Source: a virus (lineage: Duplodnaviria; Heunggongvirae; Uroviricota; Caudoviricetes). From it: DNA of 64,000 nucleotides. Below, one piece after another: positions 5,640 to 52,872 of this stretch. The notes below the pieces were generated by a model. It worked only from the letters and a program-made list of their open reading frames with translations. It had not been told where the DNA came from and searched no databases. Both the position numbers and the translations under genes were made by a program. The first letter of the stretch is position 1. Each line of letters begins with the position of its first letter. The stretch lies in IMG/VR virus record IMGVR_UViG_3300035208_003871. One strand, given 5' to 3'.

Positions 5640-6112
5640 TACTGAGTTGGATCAAATACCACTAATTCATTATGCCACTCAATAAGTGTCAAATCATAAA
5701 CAATAACCCCACGTCTTGTCGATGACCTTCTATATGTATAAGTGTCAACCAACCACCGTGAACCTAATGGTAAATTTTGATTTACTTCATTATTTGTAAC
5801 ATCAAGAATAGATCCGGGTAAAAATACATTTGGTAAATTATTTACAATTCTCCAATTAGTAAGTCCTTCTAAAAGATATGGAACTTCATGAAAACTCCAG
5901 TATGAACTTATTGTTATTGTAGTTGCTTTCCTGCCCAATAATGTTGAAATTGGAACCGATGACTGTCCAGTAGTATAAGATTCAGAATTTGCTCCCTTCA
6001 CATTAGAAACTCTGAATGATTTCATCACATGATCGGTTCCGTGAACAGGTACGAATATTTTATTTCCATTTACCATCGTAATGTTTAAAAAATATTCAGT
6101 AAATGTAAGCAT
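5627..6112 (-). CDS. Tail structural protein, 161 aa, the first gene after the tape-measure protein.
   Basis: Position in the operon. Confidence 0.45.
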   Translation of the reverse strand: MLTFTEYFLNITMVNGNKIFVPVHGTDHVMKSFRVSNVKGANSESYTTGQSSVPISTLLGRKATTITISSYWSFHEVPYLLEGLTNWRIVNNLPNVFLPGSILDVTNNEVNQNLPLGSRWLVDTYTYRRSSTRRGVIVYDLTLIEWHNELVVFDPTQYWSL

Positions 6113-6167
6113 GGTAGATAATTCAACATTTACACTATATTTAAATTGAGTGACAAAAAAGTTAGAG

Positions 6168-9100: not shown

Positions 9101-12100
9101 GAGTTGTGACATTTCCTTCATCTAAAGTTCTAAGTGTTTTAGTGAATTGCAAATTATCGTTAGATCTTTTAATTTCGTTATTTGTAATTCCCATAAATGA
9201 TGGAAGTGTCTGTCCAGTCCCGGTGTAATAACCTTTTAGACCACCGCGTGGTATAACCGTTTCACCAGATTGAAGTGCTGCCACGGTGTCATCAGGGGAT
9301 CCCGGAACCATGTCATATGCTGGTTTTGGAATTACACCCCCACCTACATATCCCTTGACTCCTGTAAGAGCTCCGTATGCACCTCCAATTATATCTGAAG
9401 GTTTGAGGATCTTTGTTTGTCCATTTGTAAAGAATTCAATTGCTCTCGCTGCAACTTCCCAAGCTGCTGCTAATGCAATTCCAATTCCAACTAACCATAA
9501 TGCAGCAACTCCCATTGCAGCAAGTCCAGCAGTAACACCGCCAAATACTGCGGTCAATTCGGCAGCAGTTCCAGCGACTGCAAGAAACAGTGATAATCCA
9601 GATGTTAGTGGCTGAATTAACATCGTTGCTACCATTAAATAAGCAGCCCATTTAACTAAAGGTTCTAGCCATCCTTTATCTTTAAAGAAAGTAAGAACGC
9701 CGACAAATAATTTTAATCCTTCTACCATTGCCGGTAATGCAGCTGCTCCTGCTTTTAACAATTCCTTAAATGTTTTAAGTGTATCTGAATTAGTAAGATC
9801 TTTAAATAATCCACGAATTGAGCTACTCAATGCATCAGTAAATTCACGATCTTTAAACATCGCCGTTGCTAACGATGTCATTCCAAGAGCAAATGTTGCC
9901 TGTACACCTTGAGCATTTTTCCAAGCGGTTACCATATCTTTCTGACTTGTACCAGCCTGACCCATTATTTCATTGACTTTTGATAATCCTCCACCAAATG
10001 CCTGAACATATGCAACATTTTTAAACATCCCGTTAAGATCGGATAAGGAAGCCATTACTCCACTGAGTGCTCCCTGCAGTTGCATGAACACACCCATAAG
10101 CGAGAAGTATACTCCCATTGAACTCATTGAAATGGAAGCAGCTTTCCATGAAAAATCTTTGGATAATTTACTAATTTTCATCGGTGTAGTTGCTTGCAGT
10201 CCACCACCTTTTACTTGTTCAGTTCCTCGTGTAAATGTTGCCTGTTTTGCACCAGCACCATGCCGTCCAATATCTACATTAAATGTTTCTTCAAACTTAT
10301 CCTGTAACCCGGTAATTTCTTCATCGGTTTTACCGTATTGTTTCTTGATCTCTTCACGCATTCCAGCAAATCCAACAGTTATATTGGATCTTGCGGCTTT
10401 CAGACCATCTTCTGTTTCGTAATCAATGATATCAGCGAAATCAAGTTTCAGGTATTTACTTGCATTTACATCACCGAGTTCAGTTTGAAGGAAACTTTCC
10501 ATCGCTGTCTTTATTCCACCCTGTCTTCGCGCTATATTTTCCCTTACTGTATTTATCTGTTCTTCTGGACTAACTGTACTAGATGTGGCACCGGGATGAA
10601 GTTGTCCATAACTAACATCCATCGTTGTCTGACCAGTTGTGCTGACAATTTCATCCATCTGTTCATTCAGGAACTTAGTCATGAATTTTTCATATGCACC
10701 ACTCATATCAGATCCGCGAACAACTCTGCGCATCGCTCTTAATGGCGCAATGTTTTTAATTCCTGCTATTATTTTATTTCCACCAACATAACCTTCCCGA
10801 GTACGTTCCGCACCCATCTCATATAATGGTCTATTTGCGTAACTGTATGTTGTACTTCCAGTTTTCATTGATGGATCTAATTCAAATCTCCAATCTGAAC
10901 CATATAAAGAACGCATTCTTTCGTTGTGAGATGATTGTTTAGCACCTGCAAGGTAATTTTTCTTGTGTGTATCTTGTTTTTCTCTGCGTGCTCTGTGAAT
11001 ATTTGAAATTTCTATACGTGCCTCGTCTTCAGCATCAGTTACACGACGCTCATATTCTCCAGATATCTGCTCACGATAAGTTTTAGTTCCTTTAATTGGT
11101 TGTTCTAATCCTGAACGCAATGCACCCTGTATATACTTAAATTTTTGAAGAATTTGTGGAGAAACATTCTGCCCACGTCTCTCATTAAATGTTCCAAAAT
11201 CTTCAGTAACGAATCTCTGTGGAACATCCATCATATCTTTAATAATTTTACCTTGTGGTGTTTCAAGGAATCCACTAACAGGTTCCATTAATTTTGAGAA
11301 TTTATCCTGACCTTCAAATTGAGTATCTTTTCCGTATTTTCCAAGAACGCCCTTGTACAAATTGGATGAAATATTCGCAAATGCTCTTTTAGATTGTTGA
11401 ATATCAGTAATTGATTGCTGCCAATTAAGTAATCTCGATGGATGAGTTCCTTTTTTACCGGGAGGGAAAGGTGCCAATGGTCTGTCCTCAGGCATAAGCA
11501 TACCCATGTTTTCAACTGCTCCACCCCATGGCTGTGCCTGTACAGCGTTTATAGCAGCTTGTGTAAATGGACTACGTTTAGATCTTTGGATACGCTGACG
11601 CTGCTGTATCATTACTTCGGGTTCTGGTAATGTTACACCATGTGTCAATCCTTCAGTTGGAAGTCCGTAATTTGGAAACTCTCTTGTAGTAAGTTGCGTT
11701 CGTCTATCATCGGGTATAAATTTATACATGTTAGATAAATCAGCCGCAAATTTTGGTTGTAATTTTAATAATTCCCGCTGCTGACGTTTGATATTTTCCA
11801 TTAACTGATTAAATTTAATAAATGGACTATTGCCTTCTGGTTCGTTATATCCACCCAAATATGGAACTGCACTCATACCACTGTGAGGAATCTTAACAGT
11901 ACTTTCTTTTGCTCCAAGTAAACTTTCACTTGGATAATTTCCAATATCGGGTCCACCCCAAGATCTTCGTTCTCCGGGCAATACCATTGATGGATTAATC
12001 ATCCCAATTGAGTCACCACGTTGTGAACGTCTAATAATTTTTGCAGATTCTTTATCTAAATTTACAAATGAAGATGTAACTCTTTTAATAGCAGTACCCA

Positions 12101-15100
12101 TTGTACTTATATCATGAGTAATATCACTTGATGGAATTGTGGTAGGTTTATTACCCATATTATAACGGCTTAGTCCAGATTCTCTAAAGTTCTTAACTCC
12201 TTGTGCAGTCTGGAATTTTCTCATTAATGAATATGGATCTTGTAAACTACCTTCTGTAATATCCTTACGTAAGAAATCTGAAATTTTCGGACTTTCTAAT
12301 GTATCTATATTTCTAAGTTTATCAATTGAAACTGACCCAAATGGATTCTTTTTTCCTCTAGATGCATTACGTAATGCACGTTCCATCCTGTAAGCCTCGC
12401 GAACATCCATTCCCATTTCATCACGCATGTAACGAGTTGGTTCATAAAATCCCATTGATCTCGTTGGATCTTCAATTACACTTGCTGGTAATGGTTTCTC
12501 AAATGATCGTCTCATTACAGGTGAATTTAATGCAGCGACTAAGTCCGGTCTCACAGGGAATCTTCCATAACGTGAACTTGAACCAAGTCCAGTCTGACGA
12601 TGTTTACGTAATCCTGATAATCCAAAGTCATATCTCGAAGTTCCTCTTGCATATCCGGGAATTCCACCTTGCATAAACCCGGGAATACTTCCACCAATTG
12701 ATCTTCTTGCACCTATTTTACCAGATCCTTCTAATGCTTTACGCATTTTATAAGACATAATGTAAGCAATGTCATTTGATGGATTTGTATCTCCCATTGA
12801 TGTTCTAACGGGTAATTCATCAGAAGTTGGAGATCCAGTAGTTTCAAATTCGTAAGCTCCAGAACTTCCAACTCCACCTAAAAGTGGCAATATTGATTTT
12901 CCTGAATTTGCCATTTGACGAATAGGTTCAAGAATTCCAATTCCACCCATCTTATTAACTTGTGATTTCGTTAATCCAAGCTCTTCATCTGATACGCGAA
13001 TTAAATCATTTGGAATTTCACCATATGGTGTACCTTTTGCATATCCGGGAATTCCACCTTTCGCAAAAAATATACGATGTATATTATTACGCAAATTACT
13101 AGCTTTAAGAATGCTACTACGTTCTGAAGATTCCCCAAAATGAGGCGACATATAATTAGAAAACTTAGATCCGAGTTTACTTCGCTCACCGGGAGTAGAT
13201 CCGCCAAGTAAACCACTTTCAAATGATTGAGCTAATGTTTCAGCGATCCCACGTCTTTGAGCATAAACTTCTTGATCATCTTTACTTACTAAATGATTAT
13301 TTTTATATGTCGTAGTATAATAACTACGTTGGGTGGGACTAAATTGTTTATATGTAGATTTTCCATATGGCGTCAATTCATCTTTCATAGTTTTATAATA
13401 ATATGGAATTCTATCTCGCATAAACTCAAAGTCTTTATGATCTCCAAGTAAATTACGTTCAACTCTTGCATGAAACATTTCATGTAAAAATGCTTCTCTA
13501 TATCTATTATTTTGCAAAGGTGTTATATTTACATAATCTTCATTTGGATTATATGATGATGTTTTTTCATTTTGATGTCTTACTCCAATTGGAGTAAAAT
13601 CATAATTGAACTTTATTCTATTTGAATTAGACAATACCCCGGCTAGTGCAGTTACACCATTTGATAAATTACGAGATTCTGATTTATAGCTAGTTGCACC
13701 ACTTGATGCAAATGGATTTGAAAAACTTGGGGAATTTCCAATACCAAATAAAGGTTTATTAAATATTTTAACTTGTTTTAATAATTTATTTCGTAATTTT
13801 GAAAAATCTCCACGTGATGTAAGTTCATTTCTAGACAAAATATGAGAATATTTTTTTCTATAATTATTATATTCAGTATTTTGTTTTCTATAAAACATTG
13901 AATTATTTCTAAATAACGGCGATGTATCTAATCTTCCGCCTTTTGCAAATTTGCGGCTTTGTAACATATATCGCAAATATGCTTCTGATTTTGGACCATT
14001 TACTTCAGCTGATAAATCCTGAAATGATTTGTGTGGATTGTGTGGGTAGATGTAACTTTTATTATTGTTTAATCCTATAGCGGTTTCAAGTTCACCACCA
14101 AGTGCAAATCCACCGTAGCGATCTGGGTGATACAATCGATCAAACCAACCACTTAATCCAGTTAAATCAAAACTATCGGTTCCGGGAATTGAGCTCATAC
14201 TCTGACCTTGATCTACGGTTGATGAAAATGCAGACTGACCCGGATTTGCTAATTGCTGAAACGGATCGACTGATTGTCTACGGAACATATCATCGCGAAC
14301 CATGTGTCCCATATGACGAACATCACGGTTATAAAATGCACGTACCTGAGCACCCATTCCCGGAACTCCTCCACGTGCAAATCCAAAGTTTTCCTTAAGT
14401 TGACCACGTAATTTCAGTAATTTTTTCACTCTCTGTTCATGAGATCCCTTGTATTGCCAATCTCCTTCTCTTTCAATGAAACTTTCTGCCCATTCCTTTG
14501 ATTTATTTATATCTTCAATTCCCGGAGTTGAAATGCTCTGAGCTAGCATTTCATTTAACCCATGATATGCCACGGTATCAGGATCGTATCCTTTTGCAAA
14601 GAGTTCATTTTGAGTATCTTTTGCATATTGCGGTAATGTTTTATTAAATATGTTTCTTAAATTTTGCACTCCGCCAGCCTTTTCTGAAAATTCATCAATC
14701 ATACCCGGAGCTATTGATTGATGAACCATTTCGTGTTCAACTGTACGAGAATCTACATTTCCAACTAAATTAATCATATTTGTAGTTGGATCATAATGAG
14801 AACGATCAACATTTGGATCTGGTGATGTAGCATATGAACGAATTCTATTTACAGGTGCAGCATAATGAATACCTAATCCGGGATTTGCATACACTTTAGC
14901 AAATAAATTTTTTTTCGCTTCTGCTATCGCGACCTGATTATTTATAGATCCTCCACGTGCAAACATTGGGATGCTACCAACCATGCTTCCGATGCCTAAT
15001 AATCCTGCGGTACCACCTACTGCAGTTGCAATGTCAAATCCATGAGTTTTCACGAAACTTTTTGCACGTGAAAATATTGATGGTGATGATTTAAATGATT

Positions 15101-16148
15101 TAACTGGTGTACTTGGTATAATTGGTGCATTTTGTTTTGACGGTTTATTATATGCTTTGATTATGGCATTTAATTGAGATGATCCCATTGTTCCACTAAA
15201 ACCGTCATTTACTGTTGGTTTCTTTATTAATTTTTGTGTATATGGTTTTGATGGACGTGCCATTGGTAATACTGCTGCTAAACTCGCACCATTAATATTA
15301 CTAAGATTTCCGAATGGCTGTCTATTTGCTGCCCGGTTTTTATGAGTTACACTACCCATTCCACGCTGCATTGCACTTAAAATTGCTGTGGTTTCTGCCT
15401 CCTTAACAGCAGCCATTGTCGTAACAGTGTGCATTGCACGTTCAGATGATTCCCTTGCACGCTGTTTTCTGATCACGCCTGCTGGTATAACTGGAGTTGC
15501 TTTTGCCCTTGATTCTACTAACCCACTAATTTGTTTAAGATATTCGGTCTGCGACTTAGCTACCCCTTGTAAATGAGTCGCAGATTCAACAAATCCCGGT
15601 GGAAGATTTTTTCGCGCCTCGTTAATCATCTTCTTTTCGTAACGAGTTGTATTTATTAATTTACCAATTGTATGAGCAGCAGTAGATACAGTATTGAGTT
15701 TTTGTGCTGCTCTTTCATACATAGTATGCGACTTGTTTTGAGAAGTTGATGGATGAATATTTCCCATAGATGGATCGCTTAATACATCTTCATACTGCTT
15801 GTTTTTAGAAGTAAACTGTCGAATACGAGCATTATAACCTGCACGTTTAACGGCCTCTACACCATGTTTCTCAACTGCTTTTTTAACTTTTGCTTCCGCT
15901 AATGCATTTTCAGTATGCATTTTTGTGAATGCACGTCTTGTATTTTCGTAGTCAGTTTTACCTAGAGGAGATCCGGTTTTCGCTGTATTACCAATTGGTG
16001 AAGCGTGAATTAACCACTCTAACTCTTCGGGATTTGCATCTCCCAATTTTCTTATTAAATCACGTGTATTTGGAAACCCAGAGTCCTTAAGAAAATCTAC
16101 TATTTTCTTAGTATAATTTTTATATGGGTCAGTATAAGGGGCAGACAT
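6168..16148 (-). CDS. Tail tape-measure protein, 3326 aa, with two embedded HExxH metallopeptidase-like motifs.
   Basis: A single 9981-nt ORF downstream of the chaperone pair. It has a long hydrophobic, Gly/Ala-rich central segment typical of tape-measure proteins (approx. nt 9160-9640) and a Pro/Thr-rich linker (approx. nt 8750-8950). Two HExxH motifs are present: VEHEMVHQ at approx. nt 14715-14745 and FLHEMFHARVE at approx. nt 13458-13493. A motif F-[AM]-[KRQ]-G-G recurs five times along the protein. Confidence 0.85.
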   Translation of the reverse strand: MSAPYTDPYKNYTKKIVDFLKDSGFPNTRDLIRKLGDANPEELEWLIHASPIGNTAKTGSPLGKTDYENTRRAFTKMHTENALAEAKVKKAVEKHGVEAVKRAGYNARIRQFTSKNKQYEDVLSDPSMGNIHPSTSQNKSHTMYERAAQKLNTVSTAAHTIGKLINTTRYEKKMINEARKNLPPGFVESATHLQGVAKSQTEYLKQISGLVESRAKATPVIPAGVIRKQRARESSERAMHTVTTMAAVKEAETTAILSAMQRGMGSVTHKNRAANRQPFGNLSNINGASLAAVLPMARPSKPYTQKLIKKPTVNDGFSGTMGSSQLNAIIKAYNKPSKQNAPIIPSTPVKSFKSSPSIFSRAKSFVKTHGFDIATAVGGTAGLLGIGSMVGSIPMFARGGSINNQVAIAEAKKNLFAKVYANPGLGIHYAAPVNRIRSYATSPDPNVDRSHYDPTTNMINLVGNVDSRTVEHEMVHQSIAPGMIDEFSEKAGGVQNLRNIFNKTLPQYAKDTQNELFAKGYDPDTVAYHGLNEMLAQSISTPGIEDINKSKEWAESFIEREGDWQYKGSHEQRVKKLLKLRGQLKENFGFARGGVPGMGAQVRAFYNRDVRHMGHMVRDDMFRRQSVDPFQQLANPGQSAFSSTVDQGQSMSSIPGTDSFDLTGLSGWFDRLYHPDRYGGFALGGELETAIGLNNNKSYIYPHNPHKSFQDLSAEVNGPKSEAYLRYMLQSRKFAKGGRLDTSPLFRNNSMFYRKQNTEYNNYRKKYSHILSRNELTSRGDFSKLRNKLLKQVKIFNKPLFGIGNSPSFSNPFASSGATSYKSESRNLSNGVTALAGVLSNSNRIKFNYDFTPIGVRHQNEKTSSYNPNEDYVNITPLQNNRYREAFLHEMFHARVERNLLGDHKDFEFMRDRIPYYYKTMKDELTPYGKSTYKQFSPTQRSYYTTTYKNNHLVSKDDQEVYAQRRGIAETLAQSFESGLLGGSTPGERSKLGSKFSNYMSPHFGESSERSSILKASNLRNNIHRIFFAKGGIPGYAKGTPYGEIPNDLIRVSDEELGLTKSQVNKMGGIGILEPIRQMANSGKSILPLLGGVGSSGAYEFETTGSPTSDELPVRTSMGDTNPSNDIAYIMSYKMRKALEGSGKIGARRSIGGSIPGFMQGGIPGYARGTSRYDFGLSGLRKHRQTGLGSSSRYGRFPVRPDLVAALNSPVMRRSFEKPLPASVIEDPTRSMGFYEPTRYMRDEMGMDVREAYRMERALRNASRGKKNPFGSVSIDKLRNIDTLESPKISDFLRKDITEGSLQDPYSLMRKFQTAQGVKNFRESGLSRYNMGNKPTTIPSSDITHDISTMGTAIKRVTSSFVNLDKESAKIIRRSQRGDSIGMINPSMVLPGERRSWGGPDIGNYPSESLLGAKESTVKIPHSGMSAVPYLGGYNEPEGNSPFIKFNQLMENIKRQQRELLKLQPKFAADLSNMYKFIPDDRRTQLTTREFPNYGLPTEGLTHGVTLPEPEVMIQQRQRIQRSKRSPFTQAAINAVQAQPWGGAVENMGMLMPEDRPLAPFPPGKKGTHPSRLLNWQQSITDIQQSKRAFANISSNLYKGVLGKYGKDTQFEGQDKFSKLMEPVSGFLETPQGKIIKDMMDVPQRFVTEDFGTFNERRGQNVSPQILQKFKYIQGALRSGLEQPIKGTKTYREQISGEYERRVTDAEDEARIEISNIHRARREKQDTHKKNYLAGAKQSSHNERMRSLYGSDWRFELDPSMKTGSTTYSYANRPLYEMGAERTREGYVGGNKIIAGIKNIAPLRAMRRVVRGSDMSGAYEKFMTKFLNEQMDEIVSTTGQTTMDVSYGQLHPGATSSTVSPEEQINTVRENIARRQGGIKTAMESFLQTELGDVNASKYLKLDFADIIDYETEDGLKAARSNITVGFAGMREEIKKQYGKTDEEITGLQDKFEETFNVDIGRHGAGAKQATFTRGTEQVKGGGLQATTPMKISKLSKDFSWKAASISMSSMGVYFSLMGVFMQLQGALSGVMASLSDLNGMFKNVAYVQAFGGGLSKVNEIMGQAGTSQKDMVTAWKNAQGVQATFALGMTSLATAMFKDREFTDALSSSIRGLFKDLTNSDTLKTFKELLKAGAAALPAMVEGLKLFVGVLTFFKDKGWLEPLVKWAAYLMVATMLIQPLTSGLSLFLAVAGTAAELTAVFGGVTAGLAAMGVAALWLVGIGIALAAAWEVAARAIEFFTNGQTKILKPSDIIGGAYGALTGVKGYVGGGVIPKPAYDMVPGSPDDTVAALQSGETVIPRGGLKGYYTGTGQTLPSFMGITNNEIKRSNDNLQFTKTLRTLDEGNVTTRKEYDIFARADDGDGIGVYVRNWVTGFGNGGKEGEGGFPFDIGIIDRLLNALSFTPTPISGGPITTPTGLPVAATPSPFSVVPGNFPMVPEEETPISATSTASPLAANPLASTPIAVPNPNSVISIIKTVIANMAQSISGAWGNFVIKVGDATEFVHKGILDSFNIIYTTAGKIKEGAGNLAIALTSGGLVEAIKNTGTTLVKSAGSAIISANSNIGRSIGISGLGRGATIQDIYYHHAGYRELQDIKDYGPTGRSNTDYATRWREGKYTYAPGPSPIDVTRSAPITKSFNEFEKEFGKALSSFAQKNRQLILSDPDNYVENEAEGLLLEQRLKQKSLGLNVDAHGILKGDPLKSLDYFLTQGIDKSRKFHTAPLTDLSPGSGYLGAAGGAYKTGPFTLMSKPGQSLVDKTGKLDIGAVLVNKEQELAIQTLRDQYKDINFVTHDQVEDYLKGSLDLTQTHTPSKLSVNKPRFGGNLKQIWTPREVWGSDVPYDYGSTARKAITSGGNPYEVALDIAKVRGQNAAVGYGGRGFQWGGQKLAPVIEKGLGWLSGKTGLKIGVEAAEAAGKSAAGRKFLLSGLSKTSAILGTGFTKANMLAGNPAVFAGAHFLESRQASKEFRSGRPLNDMMSDNGKYNTFTGLLTGGFSTAGYAKGMKRWGETFGKSEEEMRDLMNQNKDLFEAGPSIGAMLRTGSKTTDKLLGTDFSQTLEDVGDTFEKGNQSLRDSIVSTNLKVGLGPLGEANVSEGVGDLVMGLNNAAANLANFDIEGIFGAGTSLIGLGEAGMELAGNTANEIGKNPIAAADLYMTAGMPGVPIPGMSFLGPYLASILMPKTTNYLANQTYGEGEYDGMGQMQTLVDSQQAMADNVKTMTDALTTNQEATIESLNNTNWAYAGKFNEAEYTPSFMKEPQSVSALNEAISNEVNTQISQKESTPQQMEIVISVSGSDKNEIATEVIRRLQSESIIEGIIRKTYTR

Positions 16149-26546: not shown

Positions 26547-28220
26547 CTATGCATAAAAATCAATATGAGTATCACTTCCACCAAAAGCAGTCTTCCCGCC
26601 TCTATCACAAATAATTGCTATACCAGCCGGAGTCATCAACTCAAAATCTTCTGCATCTACAGCCTCCAAATACCAAATGCAGTTCGCTACGGTGTCCGAA
26701 ACGTCTTTGGAGCCTCTACGCTTTGGATGTTCAACTTTGGGCTTTCCTCCGGGCGTCTGCTTCACAAATAACTGCTCACACTCAATTTTAAGATCTTCAT
26801 TATAGACAACTTCTAAATCTATTGGATGCATTTTTTCTTGCAATTCACGCCACCGATCATAATCTTCTTTACCAACCTGATGCATAATCGGATCTAATCC
26901 AATCTCATACTGAATCGCTTCTAAAATTTCAGGATACATGTAAATATCATGTATAAATGCAACTACATTCAATGATTTAACAGCCTGTATAATAAAGTTC
27001 TTAATATCGGAAGGTAAGATATACGCATCCTTATCTCCCATTTTTTGGAATTTATAGACTCCATCTACAATAATACGATCTCCTGCACGATATGCACACG
27101 AAACACCAAAACTATCATTTTTATACGCAGGATCAATCGAAAGTACACGTGGGAATCTATTAATATCGGGCGGTAAATTATCAAAATCTAATTCCAATAC
27201 ATTTACTATTTCCTCATTAAGAGTAATACCTTCAGGAAACTGCAATCCACTTGAAATCTCAGGTTGATTAGCAAAATCTCTTAAAAATCGCGCTCTGTCT
27301 CTACCACACGATTTCCTTAAATAATCCTCAGTAACAAGTGGATTCATCTCCCAAGTCTTGTACATGTATGCACGTGCGATTCCATCCCGTTCTTCGCGTT
27401 CGAAATCACAAAATACATCCATCATGATTCCGGTTGCTGATTTCAACGAAGATATAGCAACTATTTTACCATCTAATCCAAAAGTTTCAGTAGAATTACA
27501 AAGCTTGTTATAAACCATCATCGCATCGATATCAGTCTCAGAATCTGTAAAATAATCAAATTCATCAAAAATAACAATCTTATTAGTGTAACCTGCAGCA
27601 GTAGAAGCCTTTGATGCAAGAACCTGACAAATAACATTCTTAGATGGATACTCAATACGCTGACTTCCAAACACTAATCCGGGAAACCATTTCTCAAACC
27701 ATGGATTTCCCTGAATCATCGATTTCATATTAGCAAACACACCATCACCAGCCTGTGTTCTGCTCGTCGCCAAGCAAGTGAGAGCAATAGTAGAACCTTT
27801 CCCAGATTTACCAACCATCAATCCGTAGTGACGCGCCGGATTTTCCCACGAAATAACCTCAAATAATTCATATGCAAGTATACAAGAAATCAAACTCGTC
27901 TTAGAACTACGCTGCCCCGCAATAAGAGCCAATTTCTTGCGCATTGGTGCATCCAGAACATATTTGTGCTCATAAAATCCTCTCAAAATCTCCTTCTGTA
28001 CAGGCCACATTCCACGAGGATTACCAAATTCGTCTGGTCCGGGAAAACCTAAAATTTCTTCAATAAACCAAATAGGATCGCTTCTTGCACGAATTACGTC
28101 CTCCATGAATTGCATTTCTTCAATAGGATCAATGTAAGAAATCGATGCATCTTCAATAGATTCAAAAAAGTGACGTTCTTCTGCTATACCAGCATCACGT
28201 TTGGGTCTACCTGCTGCCAT
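26547..28220 (-). CDS. Terminase large subunit (557 aa).
   Basis: An N-terminal Walker-A-like motif (LIAGQRSSKTS) and a C-terminal RNase-H-like nuclease region (LSIDPAYKNDSFGVSCAY). It overlaps the upstream small gene by 14 nt. Confidence 0.85.
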   Translation of the reverse strand: MAAGRPKRDAGIAEERHFFESIEDASISYIDPIEEMQFMEDVIRARSDPIWFIEEILGFPGPDEFGNPRGMWPVQKEILRGFYEHKYVLDAPMRKKLALIAGQRSSKTSLISCILAYELFEVISWENPARHYGLMVGKSGKGSTIALTCLATSRTQAGDGVFANMKSMIQGNPWFEKWFPGLVFGSQRIEYPSKNVICQVLASKASTAAGYTNKIVIFDEFDYFTDSETDIDAMMVYNKLCNSTETFGLDGKIVAISSLKSATGIMMDVFCDFEREERDGIARAYMYKTWEMNPLVTEDYLRKSCGRDRARFLRDFANQPEISSGLQFPEGITLNEEIVNVLELDFDNLPPDINRFPRVLSIDPAYKNDSFGVSCAYRAGDRIIVDGVYKFQKMGDKDAYILPSDIKNFIIQAVKSLNVVAFIHDIYMYPEILEAIQYEIGLDPIMHQVGKEDYDRWRELQEKMHPIDLEVVYNEDLKIECEQLFVKQTPGGKPKVEHPKRRGSKDVSDTVANCIWYLEAVDAEDFELMTPAGIAIICDRGGKTAFGGSDTHIDFYA

Positions 28221-28728
28221 TCTTACCTTCTGGTAATGCTTTCTGATCCTTCATTGCCTGCATAATCAATGGTTGACAGTGTGGACAGGCTACTTCGAGA
28301 ACGGCATTGCGTATAGATCTTAAATCAGTTTGAATCTGAATAAATTGCTGATTATAAGTATCTCCCTTGTTCAATTTTCCCTGTAACTCAGCTAAAAGCT
28401 TCAGAGTTTCCCTAATCTCTTTAATCAACTTAATACCACGATCAATATTGGAAACACCAAACTCTTCTGTCTCCATCATAAAAGCCATCCAATCCTTCAA
28501 TCGAACATGAAGCATCAATAACTCCCGATAAAAAAAGTTTGGATCATTTAATAATTCTTCAAGATTAACATTCTCGGTTGGAACTTCATGATGATTTATA
28601 TGATCGAGAACATCTTCAATGGACATATTAAATTCAACAGCCGCAGTACTAACCTTTTTTGTACCAAGTTTTAACTCAGCTGACCATTTAGCTCCGTATT
28701 GACCAGCATTACATAAATTACAACCCAT
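28207..28728 (-). CDS. Terminase small subunit candidate (173 aa).
   Basis: It lies immediately upstream of the large terminase gene and overlaps it. The size fits. Confidence 0.45.
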   Translation of the reverse strand: MGCNLCNAGQYGAKWSAELKLGTKKVSTAAVEFNMSIEDVLDHINHHEVPTENVNLEELLNDPNFFYRELLMLHVRLKDWMAFMMETEEFGVSNIDRGIKLIKEIRETLKLLAELQGKLNKGDTYNQQFIQIQTDLRSIRNAVLEVACPHCQPLIMQAMKDQKALPEGKNGSR

Positions 28729-28824: not shown

Positions 28825-29067
28825 ATGAACGGTGAATTTAAAAATGGTCAATGGATTGAACCATTAATAACCACAGAAAAAACAAATACAGAAACAGCAA
28901 ATAACTGTGATATTATAGATGTAATTCAAGTATTACGATGTACAATATCCGGAATCGTTGAAAACATAGATAAAATAGAGTATAAATTAGATCTCATCGA
29001 AAAGCGAATCGATGAGATTCAAAAACAAAAACCAAGTTTAATACATAGATTGTTTAAAAGATCCTGA
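28825..29067 (+). CDS. Hypothetical 80-aa protein.
   Basis: An ORF in a 300-bp gap between minus-strand genes. No clear RBS. Confidence 0.25.
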   Translation: MNGEFKNGQWIEPLITTEKTNTETANNCDIIDVIQVLRCTISGIVENIDKIEYKLDLIEKRIDEIQKQKPSLIHRLFKRS

Positions 29068-29799
29068 AAAATCAGAAACCTTCGGATCGTTACTATGATA
29101 TTCTTCATATATCTTATCATCTATTTTTTCCTGTAATCCCGCATCCTTATATTGATATTTTCCTAATGTATACAAATTATGACTTCCAAATGCCCATTCT
29201 GGATCGTATATACCATTTCGATACAAATATTCAGCAGTATGAATCTGTGCATACTCAGTATAACGGTCACCGAATTTTTCCTTTGCTACATACTCAGGCC
29301 ATCCAAGTCCATATGATTTCGCTAAACCAAATATCTCCTCATAATTATATTCCTCTCCATCCTTCATAACAAGCTTCATATCTATTATACATGTCATCGG
29401 GATACCATCAGATGACACAACATCCATGGGCACTTCCGTTTCCTCTTCTCCTCTAATAAGATATTCCCGAAACTTCAATGGTTTACTAATATACGGAATA
29501 TTTAATCTAATATATGATGCTCCATCCTTTACATATGACATTTTTCCGTCATCAACCACAACAATTGTTCCACCACAAATATTGTGGCTACTACTAACTT
29601 CATTACTAAATATCGCCACAAACACACATGATATAATAAGAAATACACCAAATAATAAAAAAAAACATGCTAAATAACCAAATACAGTACAAGCTATTTT
29701 ATCATTTTCATTAACATGTTTATCAACAACATTACTATACCATAATCCAAATAAAAATAAAGCAATTCCCCATAATCCAAGTGTCATTACCAAAGACAT
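29038..29799 (-). CDS. Membrane protein with two N-terminal transmembrane helices and a soluble beta-rich domain. It may be an NfeD-like partner of the flotillin.
   Basis: An N-terminal hydrophobic pair (LGLWGIALFLFGLWY; FLLFGVFLIISCVFVAIF) is followed by GGTIVVVDDGKMSYVKDGASYIRL. It lies in the same transcriptional unit as the SPFH gene. Confidence 0.45.
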   Translation of the reverse strand: MSLVMTLGLWGIALFLFGLWYSNVVDKHVNENDKIACTVFGYLACFFLLFGVFLIISCVFVAIFSNEVSSSHNICGGTIVVVDDGKMSYVKDGASYIRLNIPYISKPLKFREYLIRGEEETEVPMDVVSSDGIPMTCIIDMKLVMKDGEEYNYEEIFGLAKSYGLGWPEYVAKEKFGDRYTEYAQIHTAEYLYRNGIYDPEWAFGSHNLYTLGKYQYKDAGLQEKIDDKIYEEYHSNDPKVSDFSGSFKQSMY

Positions 29800-29877
29800 A
29801 CTACTATATACTTCGGCTGAACTTAAATATCTTTCTATTATCTAATTGTCTTTTCATTAAATAATAAAAAACTCATT

Positions 29878-30333
29878 ATGTTAATCATGCTGTATCACTT
29901 CATCGGTCACAAAATCGGAGATATTCAAAAAGATATGAGATCGAGAGCAATAAAAAATACTAAATTTGACCCTTGGAACGATCCGGGAAACATAATGATA
30001 CAAGCTATTTTAGGATATCTTACTAAATTAGAAACAAACTATGAAAATTATGGAGTAATTGTATATTTTAAAAAAGGATTTGTCATCATAGGTGCATTAC
30101 TATACTCAATAAACGACAATAAATGTACAATTCATCGATTAGGAGTTACAAAAGAATATAGAAGACAAAACATTGGTACTAAAATGGTAGAATTTTTAGA
30201 ATTATACTTAAAAATAGTTGATGCTAAAGAAATATCATTATATTCTTCTGATGAATTATATACTATAAAATTCTATGAATCTCTTGGATTTAAAACCGTT
30301 TATTCTACAAATATGATAAAATATCTAAAATAA
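29878..30333 (+). CDS. GNAT-family N-acetyltransferase (151 aa).
   Basis: An acetyl-CoA-binding motif A (IHRLGVTKEYRRQNIGTKMVEFLE) and the typical C-terminal YESLGF. Confidence 0.7.
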   Translation: MLIMLYHFIGHKIGDIQKDMRSRAIKNTKFDPWNDPGNIMIQAILGYLTKLETNYENYGVIVYFKKGFVIIGALLYSINDNKCTIHRLGVTKEYRRQNIGTKMVEFLELYLKIVDAKEISLYSSDELYTIKFYESLGFKTVYSTNMIKYLK

Positions 30334-30374
30334 GTAACCAATAAATTAATATATTTATATAACTATTTTTATAT

Positions 30375-30635
30375 ATGGATTGTTGTAAAACCTGCAAATA
30401 CTATTTCCCATATAAACTCGAAGATCGCCCATTCCACGGAAAGTGCCAAAGATTTCCACCCATTATAAGAAAGAAATCATATATGGGAGAGTTTCCAAAT
30501 ATCGCAGAATCATGTTGGTGTGGCGAATATACACTAAAAATAAATACAATAAATGAAACAAGTAAATATCCTAAACCGCCGGGCGTTTACATTAATCAAA
30601 TGCCATTAAAAGTAGGCGAATACGTCATCCGCTAA
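30375..30635 (+). CDS. Small Cys-rich protein (86 aa).
   Basis: MDCCKTCKYY...GKCQRF...ESCWCGEY. It lies in the plus-strand island with the GNAT gene. Confidence 0.4.
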   Translation: MDCCKTCKYYFPYKLEDRPFHGKCQRFPPIIRKKSYMGEFPNIAESCWCGEYTLKINTINETSKYPKPPGVYINQMPLKVGEYVIR

Positions 30636-30828
30636 ATATAAATACTGTTAAAACCAATATACTTAATGCCACACGGCATAACAAGAAAAAAAAAGAAAGG
30701 GAGAAAGAATTGCAACCTTCTTCCTTCTTTTTGTTTGTTAGAACTATTTTAACACCGTGATGAGTCTGGATTTACTTAATGCAGCAGGATTCTTTTGCTT
30801 AACGAAGCAGGTAAGCGCGCATAAATGT

Positions 30829-31227
30829 TTACCATAAAAATTTCACGTTTGTAAATTCTTGCAGATCGGTTTTAATTCGCGGCTCGATAACTTTTTCCCA
30901 TATATAAAACTTGTTAGCGAGGCCAGCACCGAGTTTGGAGATTAAATAGATTTTATGGGGATTTCGTGCAATTTCGCTTTTTAATTTGAGGATTTCGTGA
31001 AGGTAAATTTTCTCATATTCGTCAGGTTTAAAGAATCCATGATCTTCATTTGTTGGACGCTTTTTGGTTATAAAACCGTATGTGTTTGGTTCATCGCGTA
31101 ATGCAGCTGCACCACCTTTTCCGGTTCTAAATGTGTTATCGCCATAAACAAATATTTGATCTGGGTATTTTAATAAGTGATCACGTGTCACGTGCATAAA
31201 AAGGTTAGTTCGTGGGGATAAATCCAC
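30829..31227 (-). CDS. Conserved hypothetical protein (132 aa) with the motif IFVYGDNTFRTGKGGAAALR.
   Basis: It overlaps the flotillin gene by 23 nt. The glycine-rich loop suggests a nucleotide or ADP-ribose binding fold. No family assignment was made. Confidence 0.45.
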   Translation of the reverse strand: MDLSPRTNLFMHVTRDHLLKYPDQIFVYGDNTFRTGKGGAAALRDEPNTYGFITKKRPTNEDHGFFKPDEYEKIYLHEILKLKSEIARNPHKIYLISKLGAGLANKFYIWEKVIEPRIKTDLQEFTNVKFLW

Positions 31228-32785
31228 GCTTCTTGAGATTATCGATAATTGCGTTACGCTGATCGGGTGTCAGGTTCTGATACATTTTTATAAGTGCATC
31301 GGCAGTGCCATCCTTTCCGAGATCGGTAGTGGTAATATCGGGTGCGGATCCGGTGACTTTGCGCACTTCTGATAAAATGTTCTGTAAGAGTCCGGATGGA
31401 GCTGCTGATCCCAATGCATCGAGTGAGCCGCCGATGTTCATTCCGCCTCCGGGAGTGAATAAATCCATGAAGTCCTTCGGAGCACCGCTTCCAATGTACT
31501 TAACATCTGCGTTCTGCAGTGCGGTTCCATAGACGGTTGCTACGGCCTGAGTAACCTCAAGTCTAAGTACTTCTATAGCTTTGTTTTGCTGGTATTCCTG
31601 TGCCTTTGCGATTGCAAGTTGTCCATCGGCTTCTGCCATCAACTGTGCCTTTGTACCTTCTGCTTTAGCGAGCAAATTGGCTTTCGTTCCTTCTGCTTCT
31701 GCTAATAGCTGAGCTTTGTTACCTTCGGCTTTCGCAAGCATTTCTGCTTTGTTACCTTCTGCACCGGCAACCATGGTCTTTTGCGTAACATCGGCTTTTG
31801 CGGTTCCTATCAATAGTGTGTTTTGTGCCTGACCTTCTCCTTCGAGGATTGCTTTCTTTCTCGATCCTTCTGCTACTTGGATGGTCGCTTCTCGCTGCTT
31901 ATCAGCTACAATGATCCCGGCATTTCCGTTAATTTCTGCTTTGCGTATTTCTTGCGTTTGATAAACTTCCATTTCTTTCTGAACGGCGAGTTGCTGTTGT
32001 TCGGCAACATTCATTTTCATTGCCTGATCACGCATTGCAATCTTTTCATTTGCTTCAATTTTACGGCTCTCGGATTGTTCACGCGCCTCTGATTCAGAAA
32101 CGCTTGCTTGTCGCTGCCGATTTGCCACTTCCATGCGCGAAGTTGCGTTGATTTCCGCTTCCTTCTTATTAGAAATGTCAAACACAACTGTTGAACTACT
32201 GTCATCCGGATCGCGGATACTCACAAATGCTACATTGGTGATTTCGCAACCCCATTTAGAGAAATCGGATTCGAGTTCGGACTTGACAAGGTTTGCGAGT
32301 TCTTCGCGCTTTGCAATGATATCTTCTATATTATAATTGGCAGTCGCGGTTCTTGTTGCACCAATTACGATATCTGATATTCCGTGAATGAATGAATCGA
32401 TAACAGAAGCGCCTTCAACTAATGGAAATCTTCGCGCTGCTTCGTTAACATTAGTAATTTTGCAGAATACAGATATGTCAACGGTGAATCGCGGGTTTCC
32501 CTTTGCGAATGTCTCGAAATTTTTGATTGGGATCTCGATGATATTTAGGGGCATTCTTCTAATGGTGACACCGAGCACTGGTAACCATGCAGGCCATGCA
32601 TAATACACAGGTTCCGGTTTCCCTGATGCAGTAACGCTGATATCGCCAGAGAAGATGTAACCACCTTTCGCGCTTACTACGACATCCGCCGCGTTCGGGG
32701 GTACAATCTTACGAAGAGTAATAATGTAATAAATCGCTATAATTAGGACTATTACTCCAATAAGTTGAAGAATTTCTATTATCAT
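31205..32785 (-). CDS. SPFH/band-7 domain protein, flotillin-like (YqiK-type), 526 aa.
   Basis: An N-terminal transmembrane helix (IIEILQLIGVIVLIIAIYYII) is followed by an SPFH core and a long Ala/Glu-rich coiled coil with AEG-x-KA repeats (AEGNKAEMLAKAEGNKAQLLAEAEGTKANLLAKAEGTKAQLMAEADG). Confidence 0.8.
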   Translation of the reverse strand: MIIEILQLIGVIVLIIAIYYIITLRKIVPPNAADVVVSAKGGYIFSGDISVTASGKPEPVYYAWPAWLPVLGVTIRRMPLNIIEIPIKNFETFAKGNPRFTVDISVFCKITNVNEAARRFPLVEGASVIDSFIHGISDIVIGATRTATANYNIEDIIAKREELANLVKSELESDFSKWGCEITNVAFVSIRDPDDSSSTVVFDISNKKEAEINATSRMEVANRQRQASVSESEAREQSESRKIEANEKIAMRDQAMKMNVAEQQQLAVQKEMEVYQTQEIRKAEINGNAGIIVADKQREATIQVAEGSRKKAILEGEGQAQNTLLIGTAKADVTQKTMVAGAEGNKAEMLAKAEGNKAQLLAEAEGTKANLLAKAEGTKAQLMAEADGQLAIAKAQEYQQNKAIEVLRLEVTQAVATVYGTALQNADVKYIGSGAPKDFMDLFTPGGGMNIGGSLDALGSAAPSGLLQNILSEVRKVTGSAPDITTTDLGKDGTADALIKMYQNLTPDQRNAIIDNLKKRGFIPTN

Positions 32786-33021
32786 AAAGGTCGTTCACTC
32801 CTGAGTTTCACTGTTCCTTTAGTAATGTTAATACTAAAGTCCGGTTTAAGTAACGTGCTGCGTTCCTGACTTTCATCCGAAAACTGAAGAATTATCGTCT
32901 GACCCTGTTCCACGAGTAGTTCATAGAACTTCGCGATGTCCTCAGGATTATGAAACACAATCTCATCATCGGCCATCCGTTTTATCTTCATTATTTCAAT
33001 GGACATATGGCTTTTCGCCAC
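32782..33021 (-). CDS. Hypothetical 79-aa protein, the first gene of the minus-strand operon.
   Basis: It overlaps the flotillin start by 4 nt (ATGA-type coupling). Confidence 0.4.
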   Translation of the reverse strand: MAKSHMSIEIMKIKRMADDEIVFHNPEDIAKFYELLVEQGQTIILQFSDESQERSTLLKPDFSINITKGTVKLRSERPL

Positions 33022-33124
33022 CTATACATTAAATGGAGAAGTATTTATATGTTTTTAAGACGAAATTATAATAAGTAAATGTGTGCCGGTTTACTATGTT
33101 TATATAGTGTCAAATGGGGGTATC

Positions 33125-33316
33125 ATGTTAATAGAAATATCATTAGCAAATTTGTATATTGTAGGTGTGGTAATTATGTTTAGTGGGATTATTGCAATGT
33201 TTGTGTTTTATGATAATGTAATAATGAGAACTGTGGCATTATTTATTGGAATGCTCGCCTCAATGTGGGTTTATAGTACATTTCGGCTGGTTATTGGTAA
33301 TAATTTGGAGGAGTAA
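33125..33316 (+). CDS. Small membrane protein, the first gene of the plus-strand early-like operon.
   Basis: The ATG at 33125 is preceded by a TTTATATAG TATA-like box about 20 nt upstream. The product is hydrophobic (MLIEISLANLYIVGVVIMFSGIIAMFVFY...). Confidence 0.4.
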   Translation: MLIEISLANLYIVGVVIMFSGIIAMFVFYDNVIMRTVALFIGMLASMWVYSTFRLVIGNNLEE

Positions 33317-40879: not shown

Positions 40880-41086
40880 TTACTCGGTGGCAATTTTTAC
40901 ATCTTCGGGCTTTGCAGTTTTGCGCTTGGCATGAGTTGTAAGGAGTTTAATCTGTTTTGACCACCCGGTTCCAATTGCAGAGAGTTTCTTGTCGAACTCG
41001 ATAGCTGCTTCACGTGACACACGCTCGATACCATTGGCTTTCATCAATCTGACAATAGCCGCTAAAGGAAATGTCGTTTCTGACAT
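40880..41086 (-). CDS. Archaeal-type histone (histone-fold, HMf family), 68 aa.
   Basis: FPLAAIVRLMKANGIERVSREAAIEF...HAKRKTAKPEDVKIA matches HMfB-type histones residue by residue: PIAPIGRIIK-AGAERVS, then the RKT-x-K-x-ED signature. Confidence 0.8.
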   Translation of the reverse strand: MSETTFPLAAIVRLMKANGIERVSREAAIEFDKKLSAIGTGWSKQIKLLTTHAKRKTAKPEDVKIATE

Positions 41087-46019: not shown

Positions 46020-46560
46020 ATATAGTAACACGATTATATAATTGGTGATTTATATTAATAATTTTATATTATGTGGATTATATAATCTGAATATTATAAA
46101 AAAACTTTTATAAAATTATTTTTATTGAGTTGTACTTATTTATATTTTCGTAGCAGTGATATCACTGATTTTTATGTGATGTGGAATATATTAATAGGAA
46201 TATATTCAGGTTTTTATATTTTTGTTAATATAATTTTAGGGATTATATAATGGAGCTGGTTATATATTCCACACTATTATAAAACTATTTTTATAAATCT
46301 GTTATTATAAATCTATTATTATAATTATCAAATTATAAATCCATTATTATATTTCTATTATTATATAATGCATAGATAAATATTAAGTTTTTTATATTGA
46401 TTTCTTTATATTATTTCTTTTATATTACGACTAATATATTATTACTTTAATATCACTTTTAGTATAATTTATAGAGTATATTTTATGGAATATAAAATTA
46501 CTTATATAATTACTCTGATTATATATTAACAGGTAAAATATAACTGTTTGTCATATAATG
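46020..46560. repeat. An extremely AT-rich stretch with short direct repeats (TTATTATAAATC x3-4), which could be a DNA-unwinding element.
   Basis: Composition and the repeats at 46295-46345. Confidence 0.5.
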
Positions 46561-52171: not shown

Positions 52172-52261
52172 AATTAAAACAATATTTTTTAATTCAATAC
52201 TTTTATTCGATTTTTAATATAAAAACATTAATATAAAAACATTAAAATAAAACTATTAAAA

Positions 52262-52392
52262 TATTGAATGTACAAATATAAACAGTAATGTATTAAAATG
52301 TACATCAATGTATAGAAATGTACATCAATGCATTAAAGTATTCACCAATGTACAAAAATGTACATTATTGTATATATTTATACATTCAATAT
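52262..52392. repeat. About eight direct or inverted copies of AATGTACA(T/A) in an AT-rich spacer.
   Basis: AATGTACAAATA...AATGTACATCAATGTATAGAAATGTACATCAATGCATT...CAATGTACAAAAATGTACATTATTGTATA...TACATTCAAT. Confidence 0.65.
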
Positions 52393-52872
52393 ATTAAAAC
52401 TTTTATAAAAATATTAATATAAATAGTTAATAAATATAAATTGCAATTATATAAAAAGAATATTATAAAATTATTAATATATAAAATGTAATATATTTTT
52501 AACATTATATAGAGATCTTTATAAAAATAAATATATAAAAACAATTTTATATTAATAAAAAGTTATTCAAAAGTACTTAACAAAAAATATGGTAAAAATT
52601 CTCAAAAAACTAAGGTTACAGGCAAATTTATTATATTTAAATATTTGGATATTACTAAGGTTCATGGAAATTTGTTAACCCTTTTTAGTTAACTTTTTAA
52701 GTGAGTAAATAATGAAAATTACCCTATTACCCGGCAAAAAAGTTACAAGTTTAAAGTTTTTAATTAACCTAAGGTTACATGAATTATTTCTCATAACTCA
52801 TACCCAAATAATTATAAAAATTTACATTTTAATAATTAATTATTTATGGTTATAGAAACATACTAATTATAC

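Follow-up and report, generated by a model that had tools for sequence, protein, structure and literature searches.

Why does a tailed virus carry a gene for a flotillin-like protein next to its terminase genes, and which of the neighbouring genes is the partner of that gene? We took up these questions for a stretch of 64,000 nucleotides (the window) of the IMG/VR virus record IMGVR_UViG_3300035208_003871, in which the interval from 28,825 to 33,021 includes the gene of a 526-residue protein of the SPFH (Band_7) family, upstream of the large terminase subunit gene. A first-pass annotation had pointed out this arrangement and had proposed that the flotillin-like protein forms an SPFH/NfeD pair with p253, a 253-residue membrane protein encoded between it and the terminase genes. 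The headline of that annotation, that a viral genome has a flotillin gene beside its terminase genes, holds, and the observation was largely right. The partner assignment is another matter. As judged from sequence, the real conserved partner of the flotillin-like gene appears to be p74, a small gene directly upstream of it, and not p253.

p74 and the flotillin-like gene

The features at issue lie at the right-hand end of the interval (all coordinates are those of the window).

33007..33082, intergenic region: 76 bp, AT-rich, divergent, separating the leftward p74-SPFH unit from a rightward block of small genes
32782..33006, minus strand: p74, 74 residues, soluble and acidic; conserved partner of the flotillin-like gene
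31205..32785, minus strand: flotillin-like SPFH protein, 526 residues, with a Band_7 match
32696..32785, minus strand: its N-terminal membrane helix followed by LRK, residues 1-30 (Kyte-Doolittle maximum 2.67 with a 19-residue window)
32108..32635, minus strand: its SPFH/Band_7 domain, residues 51-226 (Pfam)
31634..31765, minus strand: four tandem AEGxKAxLLAx units of 11 residues each, residues 341-384, in the coiled-coil region

The 526-residue protein matched the Pfam Band_7 model PF01145 over residues 51-226 with a score of 63.3 bits against a cut-off of 23.6 (E=3.9e-17), and the same model was present in all 97 SPFH homologues. The single N-terminal helix and the AEGxKA repeats that had been read from the sequence were also borne out, the four repeat units being AEGNKAEMLAK, AEGNKAQLLAE, AEGTKANLLAK and AEGTKAQLMAE. 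When a profile of the SPFH family was compared with solved structures the best matches were human flotillin-2 (E=7.5e-18) and flotillin-1 (E=1.9e-17), in alignments that covered about 285-310 residues of SPFH domain plus coiled coil and outranked those to QmcA and the stomatins. The protein is also collinear with Escherichia coli YqiK. A start consisting of a helix followed by R/K is conserved across the SPFH family, and the other features conserved in the clade are the SPFH domain, the coiled coil and a C-terminal motif, YIGSGxPKDFMDLFxxGGG. The predicted architecture is that of a flotillin (SPFH2): an N-terminal anchor, an SPFH domain and a long Ala/Glu-rich coiled coil, collinear with the flotillins.

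The length of the coiled coil, measured from anchor to anchor, was 28/30, 39/41, 52, 63 or 74 residues among the relatives, the window protein being the longest. These lengths correspond to a base plus zero to four units of 11 residues, with two exceptions (55 and 67). The wall of the flotillin dome is a right-handed CC1 barrel (PMC13000311), and length states of 30+11n are compatible with a wall of that kind. Helices packed straight or with a right-handed twist would tolerate an 11-residue periodicity in register, and the length series is most simply read as a wall whose height would vary by discrete steps.

The gene heading the minus-strand genes had been given as that of a 79-residue protein. 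The gene itself is sound and its start is probably elsewhere: the GTG at 33021 gives 79 residues, whereas the likeliest start is the ATG at 33006, which gives 74 residues and has AGGTGG 10-11 nt upstream. All database copies of p74 are called at 74 residues. The TGA stop codon of p74 overlaps the SPFH start codon as ATGA, AGGAGTGA stands ahead of the SPFH start, and the two genes are translationally coupled via the overlap.

All 29 distinct close-clade loci (33-100% SPFH identity), a count that takes in the close-clade loci with upstream sequence, had a gene of the p74 family as the same-strand neighbour directly ahead of the SPFH gene. The gap between the two genes was -14 to +17 nt in 27 of these loci. 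One fragmentary SPFH match (L057) was without p74. Upon clustering of all neighbouring open reading frames (ORFs) no other family accompanied the SPFH gene consistently, the next commonest being a DNA methyltransferase found in 10 loci at varying positions. Pairwise distances among the p74 proteins were strongly correlated with those among the first 230 residues of the SPFH proteins (r=0.92, Mantel 0/2000). For comparison, the best published correlation between SPFH and NfeD proteins is 0.911, for SPFH2a with NfeD2a (PMC2636767). Given the linkage and the correlated divergence, the p74 and SPFH genes have therefore been inherited as a unit, with no swapping of partners.

The p74 protein is acidic and has no hydrophobic segment, and the family members (69-89 residues) have no extension. 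Their shared pattern is ME[IV]IK[IV]..R...EIVFAS..D...F.D.I..GK.VI.DY.D...R.GE.V.P.I...I.D.KI.I.SEE. None of 21 family members matched PF01957 (NfeD) or PF07290 (YqiJ_OB) at E<=1, and no meaningful Pfam family was found. A profile search of the Protein Data Bank (PDB) gave no match, and the hhalign values were all below 1% (0.1% against YqiJ and 0.8% against three NfeD2-like proteins). No p74 relatives were found in the phage collection, and PHROGs holds no family for p74, the SPFH protein or p253. The AlphaFold2 (AF2) model of p74, made from a five-sequence alignment, was of low confidence with a predicted local distance difference test (pLDDT) value of 47.6, and only residues 6-33 were modelled, as strand-strand-helix. 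A conserved amphipathic segment at residues 21-33 argues weakly against an all-beta domain. Hence p74, as far as its sequence goes, seems to hold the operon position of NfeD/YqiJ but to fail that family's other defining features.

p253 and the genes between p74-SPFH and the terminase

All of the ORFs named by the first-pass annotation were found where it had placed them. The remaining genes of the interval, together with the first genes of the packaging block, are listed from right to left.

30829..31227, minus strand: p132 (DUF7831), last gene of the p74-SPFH unit; PF25176, phrog_2072
30375..30635, plus strand: Cys86, 86 residues, Cys-rich; member of a conserved trio with p253 and p80
29878..30333, plus strand: GNAT acetyltransferase, 151 residues; Pfam and PHROG acetyltransferase families
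29038..29799, minus strand: p253, membrane protein with two N-terminal helices and a soluble domain of about 185 residues
28825..29067, plus strand: p80, 80 residues; convergent with p253 and overlapping its 3' end
28207..28728, minus strand: p173, candidate small terminase subunit (TerS) by position only; overlaps the TerL start by 14 nt
26547..28220, minus strand: large terminase subunit (TerL); phrog_9, similar to the Microcystis phage Ma-LMM01 terminase

The minus-strand genes had been taken as a single operon running into the terminase, portal and capsid genes. This did not hold, since plus-strand genes break the minus-strand genes at two places, GNAT plus Cys86 (29878-30635) and the 80-residue ORF (28825-29067). 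At least three minus-strand units result: p74-SPFH-p132 (33006 to 30829), p253 alone (29799 to 29038), and p173-TerL-portal onward (from 28728). The terminase and portal assignments were upheld. TerL matched phrog_9 (E=1.7e-13) and was 24% identical to the Ma-LMM01 terminase over 87% of the query, the portal gene downstream matched phrog_12 (E=4.5e-6), and a tail tube protein is encoded further on. The presence of terminase, portal and tail tube genes therefore marks the genome as that of a tailed virus. No Pfam, PHROG or NCBIfam model matched p173, despite its 81% identity with the corresponding protein of L002, a related contig described next. p173 has two CxxC pairs, CNLC near the N-terminus and CPHC near the C-terminus.

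L002 is an independent 62.6-kb contig from another sample, and its gene order follows that of the window to either side of the module. Identities between the two were 77-92% for the structural genes, 83% for TerL, 82% for p74, 64% for the SPFH protein, 58% for RNase H, 45% for p77 (the first gene of the rightward block) and 90% for a histone-fold gene. Thus, the SPFH protein has diverged faster than the structural proteins. The two genomes differ most in the segment that runs from the SPFH gene to the terminase.

The module might be thought to be host DNA beside the end of a provirus, or an assembly or binning artefact. A protein identical to p253 (P0103) is deposited at NCBI as a hypothetical protein of a 'Dehalococcoidales bacterium' metagenome-assembled genome (MAG), on a 155.3-kb contig, and one p74-flotillin pair (L059) lies in a clearly bacterial chromosome. 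However, both flanks are collinear with the independent L002 contig, and the p77/p74/SPFH junction was reproduced exactly on six short contigs from other samples. The G+C content is 42-45% over the SPFH gene and 30-34% over the flanking kilobases, and other parts of the structural genes reach up to 42%. Since a terminase, a portal and tail proteins are encoded, the Dehalococcoidales label is probably that of a viral contig binned with a bacterial MAG. These comparisons place the module within the viral genome, and a provirus edge or an artefact is scarcely credible. The first-pass annotation had named two outcomes that would refute it, a failed Band_7 match and host DNA at a provirus boundary, and both checks came out in its favour.

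The proposed SPFH/NfeD pair of the flotillin-like protein with p253, in which the soluble domain of p253 would be an NfeD-like beta-barrel, can also be judged from these loci. The two N-terminal hydrophobic segments of p253 were confirmed. In favour of the pair, both genes encode membrane proteins within the same 4-kb interval in two sister viruses and NfeD proteins are notoriously divergent (PMC2636767). Moreover, the AlphaFold model of p253, made from the single sequence (pLDDT 47.2) and unusable beyond the two helices, leaves room for a cryptic OB fold. However, hmmscan, hhalign and PDB profile searches found no NfeD, YqiJ_OB or SPFH similarity in the protein and no Pfam family above noise. 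Neither p253 nor any of six relatives, the only ones found by an exhaustive HMMER pass through 1.84 billion representative proteins, matched PF01957 or PF07290 at E<=1. Controls put through the same kind of Pfam search did match: E. coli YqiJ matched YqiJ_N, and YqiJ_OB at E=1.7e-14, and a 175-residue gene upstream of a cellular flotillin gave a weak NfeD match (E=8e-4, 20 bits, under the 29.1-bit cut-off). We also considered p253 as a second, divergent SPFH domain, a stretch of the form IPY...VVSSDGIP...YGLxW appearing SPFH-like by eye, and set it aside as unsupported (hhalign probability against the flotillin family 1.5-1.8%, no Pfam or PDB support).

Gene position and distribution also spoke against the pair. 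NfeD genes lie upstream of SPFH genes in the same operon (PMC2636767), whereas p253 lies downstream in a unit of its own behind two plus-strand genes. A p253 relative accompanied the SPFH gene in only 1 of 59 loci with related SPFH genes, that of L002, and the SPFH gene occurs without p253 in at least 27 other lineages. Between the sister viruses p253 is 30% identical, as against the 64% of the SPFH protein. Conversely, a distant p253 relative (P0107) was found on a 5.3-kb contig having RNase H and small genes on one strand and, on the other, the p253-like gene, a 179-residue gene and a gene of at least 466 residues; nowhere from the early genes to the terminase is there an SPFH gene. This order mirrors the p253, TerS-sized and TerL genes of L002, so that in this virus group p253 goes with the packaging genes, and the p74-SPFH unit seems to have been inserted between p253 and the early region. 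Taken together, sequence, position and co-occurrence indicate that p253 is not the partner of the flotillin-like protein, and we regard the SPFH/NfeD pair as very improbable.

The other genes of the interval sorted into two kinds. GNAT plus Cys86 had been called a plus-strand, moron-like island, and this fits the first gene and not the second. The GNAT assignment was confirmed by three Pfam models above their gathering scores (PF13508, Acetyltransf_7, 43.6 bits against 27; PF00583, Acetyltransf_1, 43.3 against 20.7; PF13673, Acetyltransf_10, 39.9 against 23.6; E=4e-11 to 5e-10), and PHROG acetyltransferase families matched too. The GNAT gene is absent from L002 and from a further locus, L063, in which the gap between the Cys86-like and p253-like genes is only 76 bp (L002) or 81 bp (L063). 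It has therefore been inserted, as a single gene, into the spacer from which p253 and Cys86 diverge. The 132-residue protein noted for a glycine-rich loop is present and proved to belong to DUF7831 (PF25176, E=8.1e-18; phrog_2072, E=5.9e-7), both families being of unknown function. It has no PDB relative and is absent from L002 and all other SPFH loci. Thus the GNAT and DUF7831 genes are insertions specific to this virus.

Cys86, which has six cysteines, is found in the same place and orientation in both relatives (33% identity to the L002 copy and 66% over 56 residues to that of L063). p80 is 41% (L002) and 46% (L063) identical with the arrangement kept, and L063 has the Cys86-like, p253-like and p80-like genes in the orientations seen in the window. 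Hence Cys86 is no moron but a member of a conserved Cys86-p253-p80 trio on the terminase side. GNAT, p132, Cys86, p253 and p80 are all outside the p74-SPFH system.

Across the divergent region from p74, p77 (33083-33316, plus strand) is a small and very hydrophobic protein with two or three membrane helices that is present on all short contigs having the junction. Translation of p77 probably begins at the ATG at 33126, which has GGGGGT ahead of it.

Distribution and possible roles of the p74-SPFH cassette

The SPFH clade of the window (33-64% identity) is known only from metagenomes, the sources being landfill leachate, digesters, activated sludge, sediments and wetlands. Apart from L002, the related loci gave no match to the window TerL, portal or structural genes and their neighbours differ from locus to locus. 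In L004 and L006 the cassette lies among small unannotated genes, and in L008 a distant phage flotillin lies beside ribonucleotide reductase and Thy1. L059 is a 176-kb contig of a Brevinematales MAG in which the p74-flotillin pair has as neighbours OmpA/FecR, an acyl-CoA synthetase, an M3 peptidase and acetolactate synthase. Between the p74-like and flotillin genes of L059 (9757-9888) there is an ORF of 43 residues with one hydrophobic helix, which may be a separate membrane-anchor subunit missing from the viral cassettes.

Full-length flotillin-like homologues of 28-30% identity (E=1e-31 to 1e-38) were found in 51 deposited phage genomes. These include the Vibrio Thalassavirus phages (T5-like, e.g., Chester), where the gene lies in the tRNA region, Xanthomonas jumbo phages such as X1, whose record calls the product an SPFH domain-containing protein, phages of Brevundimonas, Ralstonia and Erwinia, and Xanthomonas phages Ep026 and PhiXhv-15. 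The records are annotated either hypothetical or SPFH domain-containing. In the four distant lineages examined, Chester, X1, the metagenomic L001 and L008, there was no p74 gene upstream. SPFH genes have also been noted in the genomes of Stenotrophomonas phage DLP5 and Gibbsiella phage GIB1. Phage genome papers list such genes as moron or host-related genes without functional data, and they have been classed as morons (PMC5834331). Our literature search turned up no functional study of a flotillin encoded by a phage. The Perkons paper deals with integration into a host floA gene and has no bearing here.

Thus phage SPFH genes are already in the databases. What is new is the p74 family, its strict linkage to one flotillin clade and the 11-residue length series. 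Also new is the division of the interval into an inserted cassette, two virus-specific single-gene insertions and the conserved Cys86-p253-p80 trio.

The closest parallels to the cassette in gene order are the yqiJ-yqiK operon of E. coli and the yuaF-floT-yuaI operon of Bacillus subtilis, in which a small gene also lies directly upstream of the flotillin-like gene and is co-transcribed with it. The flotillins of these operons have the same order of parts as the 526-residue protein (N-terminal anchor, SPFH domain, Ala/Glu-rich coiled coil, C-terminal region), and partner and SPFH protein co-evolve in SPFH2-type operons (PMC2636767) as in the p74 cassette. The differences are that the window cassette is carried by a virus and that p74 is a soluble protein predicted to be a mixture of helix and strand, whereas YqiJ and YuaF combine membrane helices at the N-terminus with an OB domain that is all-beta. 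The B. subtilis operon also contains a GNAT gene, yuaI, but the GNAT gene of the window is on the opposite strand, belongs to another unit and is missing from L002 and L063, and the likeness is probably coincidental.

A partner of the YqiJ type was found in L062, a phage-like 147.6-kb contig on which, at 5468-7974, a 657-residue flotillin, from a cluster of 185 member sequences, is directly preceded by a 172-residue protein. The partner is thus immediately upstream as in the window, but the L062 protein has the YqiJ/NfeD2 layout of membrane helices, an acidic DxDxD stretch and a beta-rich C-terminus (unrecognised by Pfam), features that p74 lacks. In structural terms the domain order of the 526-residue protein is that of the human flotillin-1/-2 dome (PDB 9bq2 and 9l3g), HflK/C, QmcA and stomatin. 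Compared with the flotillin dome, the window protein would be a single-gene homo-oligomer and not a hetero-oligomer. It would have a true transmembrane helix in place of a hairpin or lipidation, and its wall length would differ among relatives in 11-residue steps.

The explanation that we prefer, in which we place about as much belief as doubt, is that p74 and the SPFH gene form a self-contained cassette, an accessory unit situated between the rightward small genes and the leftward packaging and structural genes. By homology with flotillin-1/2, HflK/C and YqiK, the N-terminal helix would anchor the 526-residue protein in the membrane so that its SPFH domain faces the cytoplasm. The long coiled coil would then build an oligomeric ring or dome around a portion of the host membrane, with the number of 11-residue repeats setting the height of the wall. 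p74 would be made in step with the SPFH protein and would bind it as cargo, cap or assembly factor. The cassette would be expressed from the divergent region at 33007-33082, apart from the terminase unit. Its role would be to condition the host membrane during infection, either by sequestering a host membrane complex or by keeping the membrane intact until lysis.

Several results weigh against parts of this picture. The 526-residue protein did not match the Pfam Flot C-terminal model PF15975 (E<=0.1), and its score with the NCBIfam FloT model (NF058507) was 46.2 bits, far under the 700-bit equivalog cut-off. Its 26 closest relatives list PF01145 only, whereas many cellular matches list PF15975 too, and on this basis we take the protein to be flotillin-like, and not an orthologue of FloT or YqiK. 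The correlated divergence of p74 and the SPFH protein is expected from tight linkage alone, and so is compatible with a physical interaction but is no proof of one. The AlphaFold models of p253 and p74 (pLDDT about 47) gave no support for oligomerisation or for p74 binding. The p74-flotillin pair of L059, in its bacterial chromosomal context, indicates that the cassette is no virus-specific invention. Finally, the region at 33007-33082 contains a sigma-70-like match on the plus strand (TTTATA-17-TATAAT, 33044-33072), but matches to promoter-like and terminator-like consensus sequences were as frequent in shuffled sequence as observed. Because of this the transcription units given above were divided by gene orientation only, and the promoter function of the region is inferred from gene layout only.

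Other roles are conceivable for the same two genes. p74 could define a system of its own, in which a soluble 74-residue protein replaces NfeD/YqiJ and a viral cage, its height tuned in 11-residue steps, encloses or disables one particular membrane complex of the host, such as a defence effector that acts on membranes, the entry route of a competitor, or a protease. We consider this possible though not probable. A weapon against competitors, acting by superinfection exclusion or abortive infection as the dome blocks DNA entry or triggers membrane failure, seems to us unlikely. Such a role would suit the hypervariable stretch with its two virus-specific insertions, the rapid divergence of the SPFH protein relative to the structural genes, its varying repeat number, the movement of the cassette between unrelated viral backbones and the classification of phage SPFH genes as morons (PMC5834331). 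However, fast divergence fits adaptation to different hosts equally well, the cassette has no effector domain (nuclease, protease or pore former), and no PADLOC-DB 2.0 model scored above noise, the two matches (E=0.004-0.005) being at noise level.

Alternatively, the flotillin might cage a host membrane protease of the FtsH type, as HflK/C does, and so keep regulators or membrane proteins of the virus from being degraded. Among prokaryotic SPFH cages those around FtsH are the best understood, and the lysis-lysogeny choice of phage lambda is set by HflK/C. In addition to this precedent within the family, SPFH1 and NfeD proteins interact with FtsH (PMC2636767). Nevertheless, the 526-residue protein is closest to the flotillins, its SPFH domain is predicted to be cytoplasmic whereas that of HflK/C is outside the membrane, and no integrase or repressor was identified in the window, most proteins of which are unannotated. 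Hence we hold this reading to be quite doubtful. A morphogenesis or egress factor, providing a membrane platform for packaging, assembly or release, is still harder to accept and we judge it decidedly improbable. It would account for the position of the gene in two sister viruses, within 3-4 kb upstream of TerS/TerL and on the same strand. However, plus-strand genes lie between the SPFH gene and the terminase unit, and most tailed viruses have no such gene. The module's link to morphogenesis looks positional only. An accessory, membrane-conditioning role is favoured as the most likely one, and capsid assembly is unlikely, because the cassettes and distant flotillins of other lineages lie among small unannotated, nucleotide-metabolism and tRNA genes, and because the relative within the virus group (P0107) has p253, TerS and TerL directly after its early genes with no SPFH gene.

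The self-contained accessory cassette bears on a wider problem. What cargo SPFH cages hold, and to what end, is still a question in every domain of life, even though their structure is now understood. A virus usually retains just the minimal working version of a host system, and therefore the strictly two-gene cassette with its tiny soluble partner would be a compact and tractable handle on the assembly or loading of a flotillin cage. Should the 11-residue steps determine how tall the cage is, the natural series from 30 to 74 residues would test wall length against cargo. The cassette would also give a first functional foothold for the phage SPFH genes now annotated hypothetical. If its function were generic membrane maintenance, it would be one more host-derived accessory gene.

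Host signals and other features of the genome

The signals that bear on the host point in two directions. Archaeal pointers are the histone-fold gene, an MJ0330_N match on the L002 terminase and archaeal-type neighbours in the locus L003. Bacterial pointers are a gene resembling a class II CCA-adding enzyme, an ArdC-like gene, the Dehalococcoidales label and the context of L059. The histone-fold protein (40880-41086, minus strand, 68 residues; Pfam CBFD_NFYB_HMF, E=3.5e-8), which shares 90% identity with its L002 counterpart, matches archaeal histones in size; such a gene is not usual in a tailed virus. The CCA-enzyme-like protein (60170-61561, plus strand, 463 residues) has HD, tRNA_NucTran2_2 and weak PolyA_pol head matches and resembles the class II (bacterial-type) enzyme. 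No tRNA gene was found in the window. The ArdC-like protein (54952-55884, plus strand) matched ArdcN (E=7.9e-29) and the zincin MPTase-PolyVal (E=5e-36), an anti-restriction type that is commoner on conjugative plasmids.

Searches for relatives of the whole genome gave little. A megablast search of 50,697 deposited phage records found no close relative, nor did tblastn with the capsid candidate. In IMG/VR the TerL query gave no match and the SPFH query one distant locus. A check for a long direct repeat within the window, as expected of a concatemer, found none.

Within the structural block an ORF of 3,326 residues (6168-16148, minus strand) had no Pfam match at E<=0.01 and may encode a giant tail, fibre or adhesin protein. 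Over 42-45 kb the GC skew climbs as high as +0.5 to +0.6, and the G+C content then falls to 18-28% over 46-53 kb. Iteron-like tandem arrays lie at 46275-46453 (14-bp units) and at 52214-52496 (20/40-bp units containing AATGTACA). The skew shift and the AT-rich arrays are candidates for a replication origin or for regulatory arrays. The TerL of L002 (13593-16229) contains an intein with an HNH endonuclease (Intein_splicing, HNH_3) at a site near residue 503 of the window protein, which is itself intein-free.

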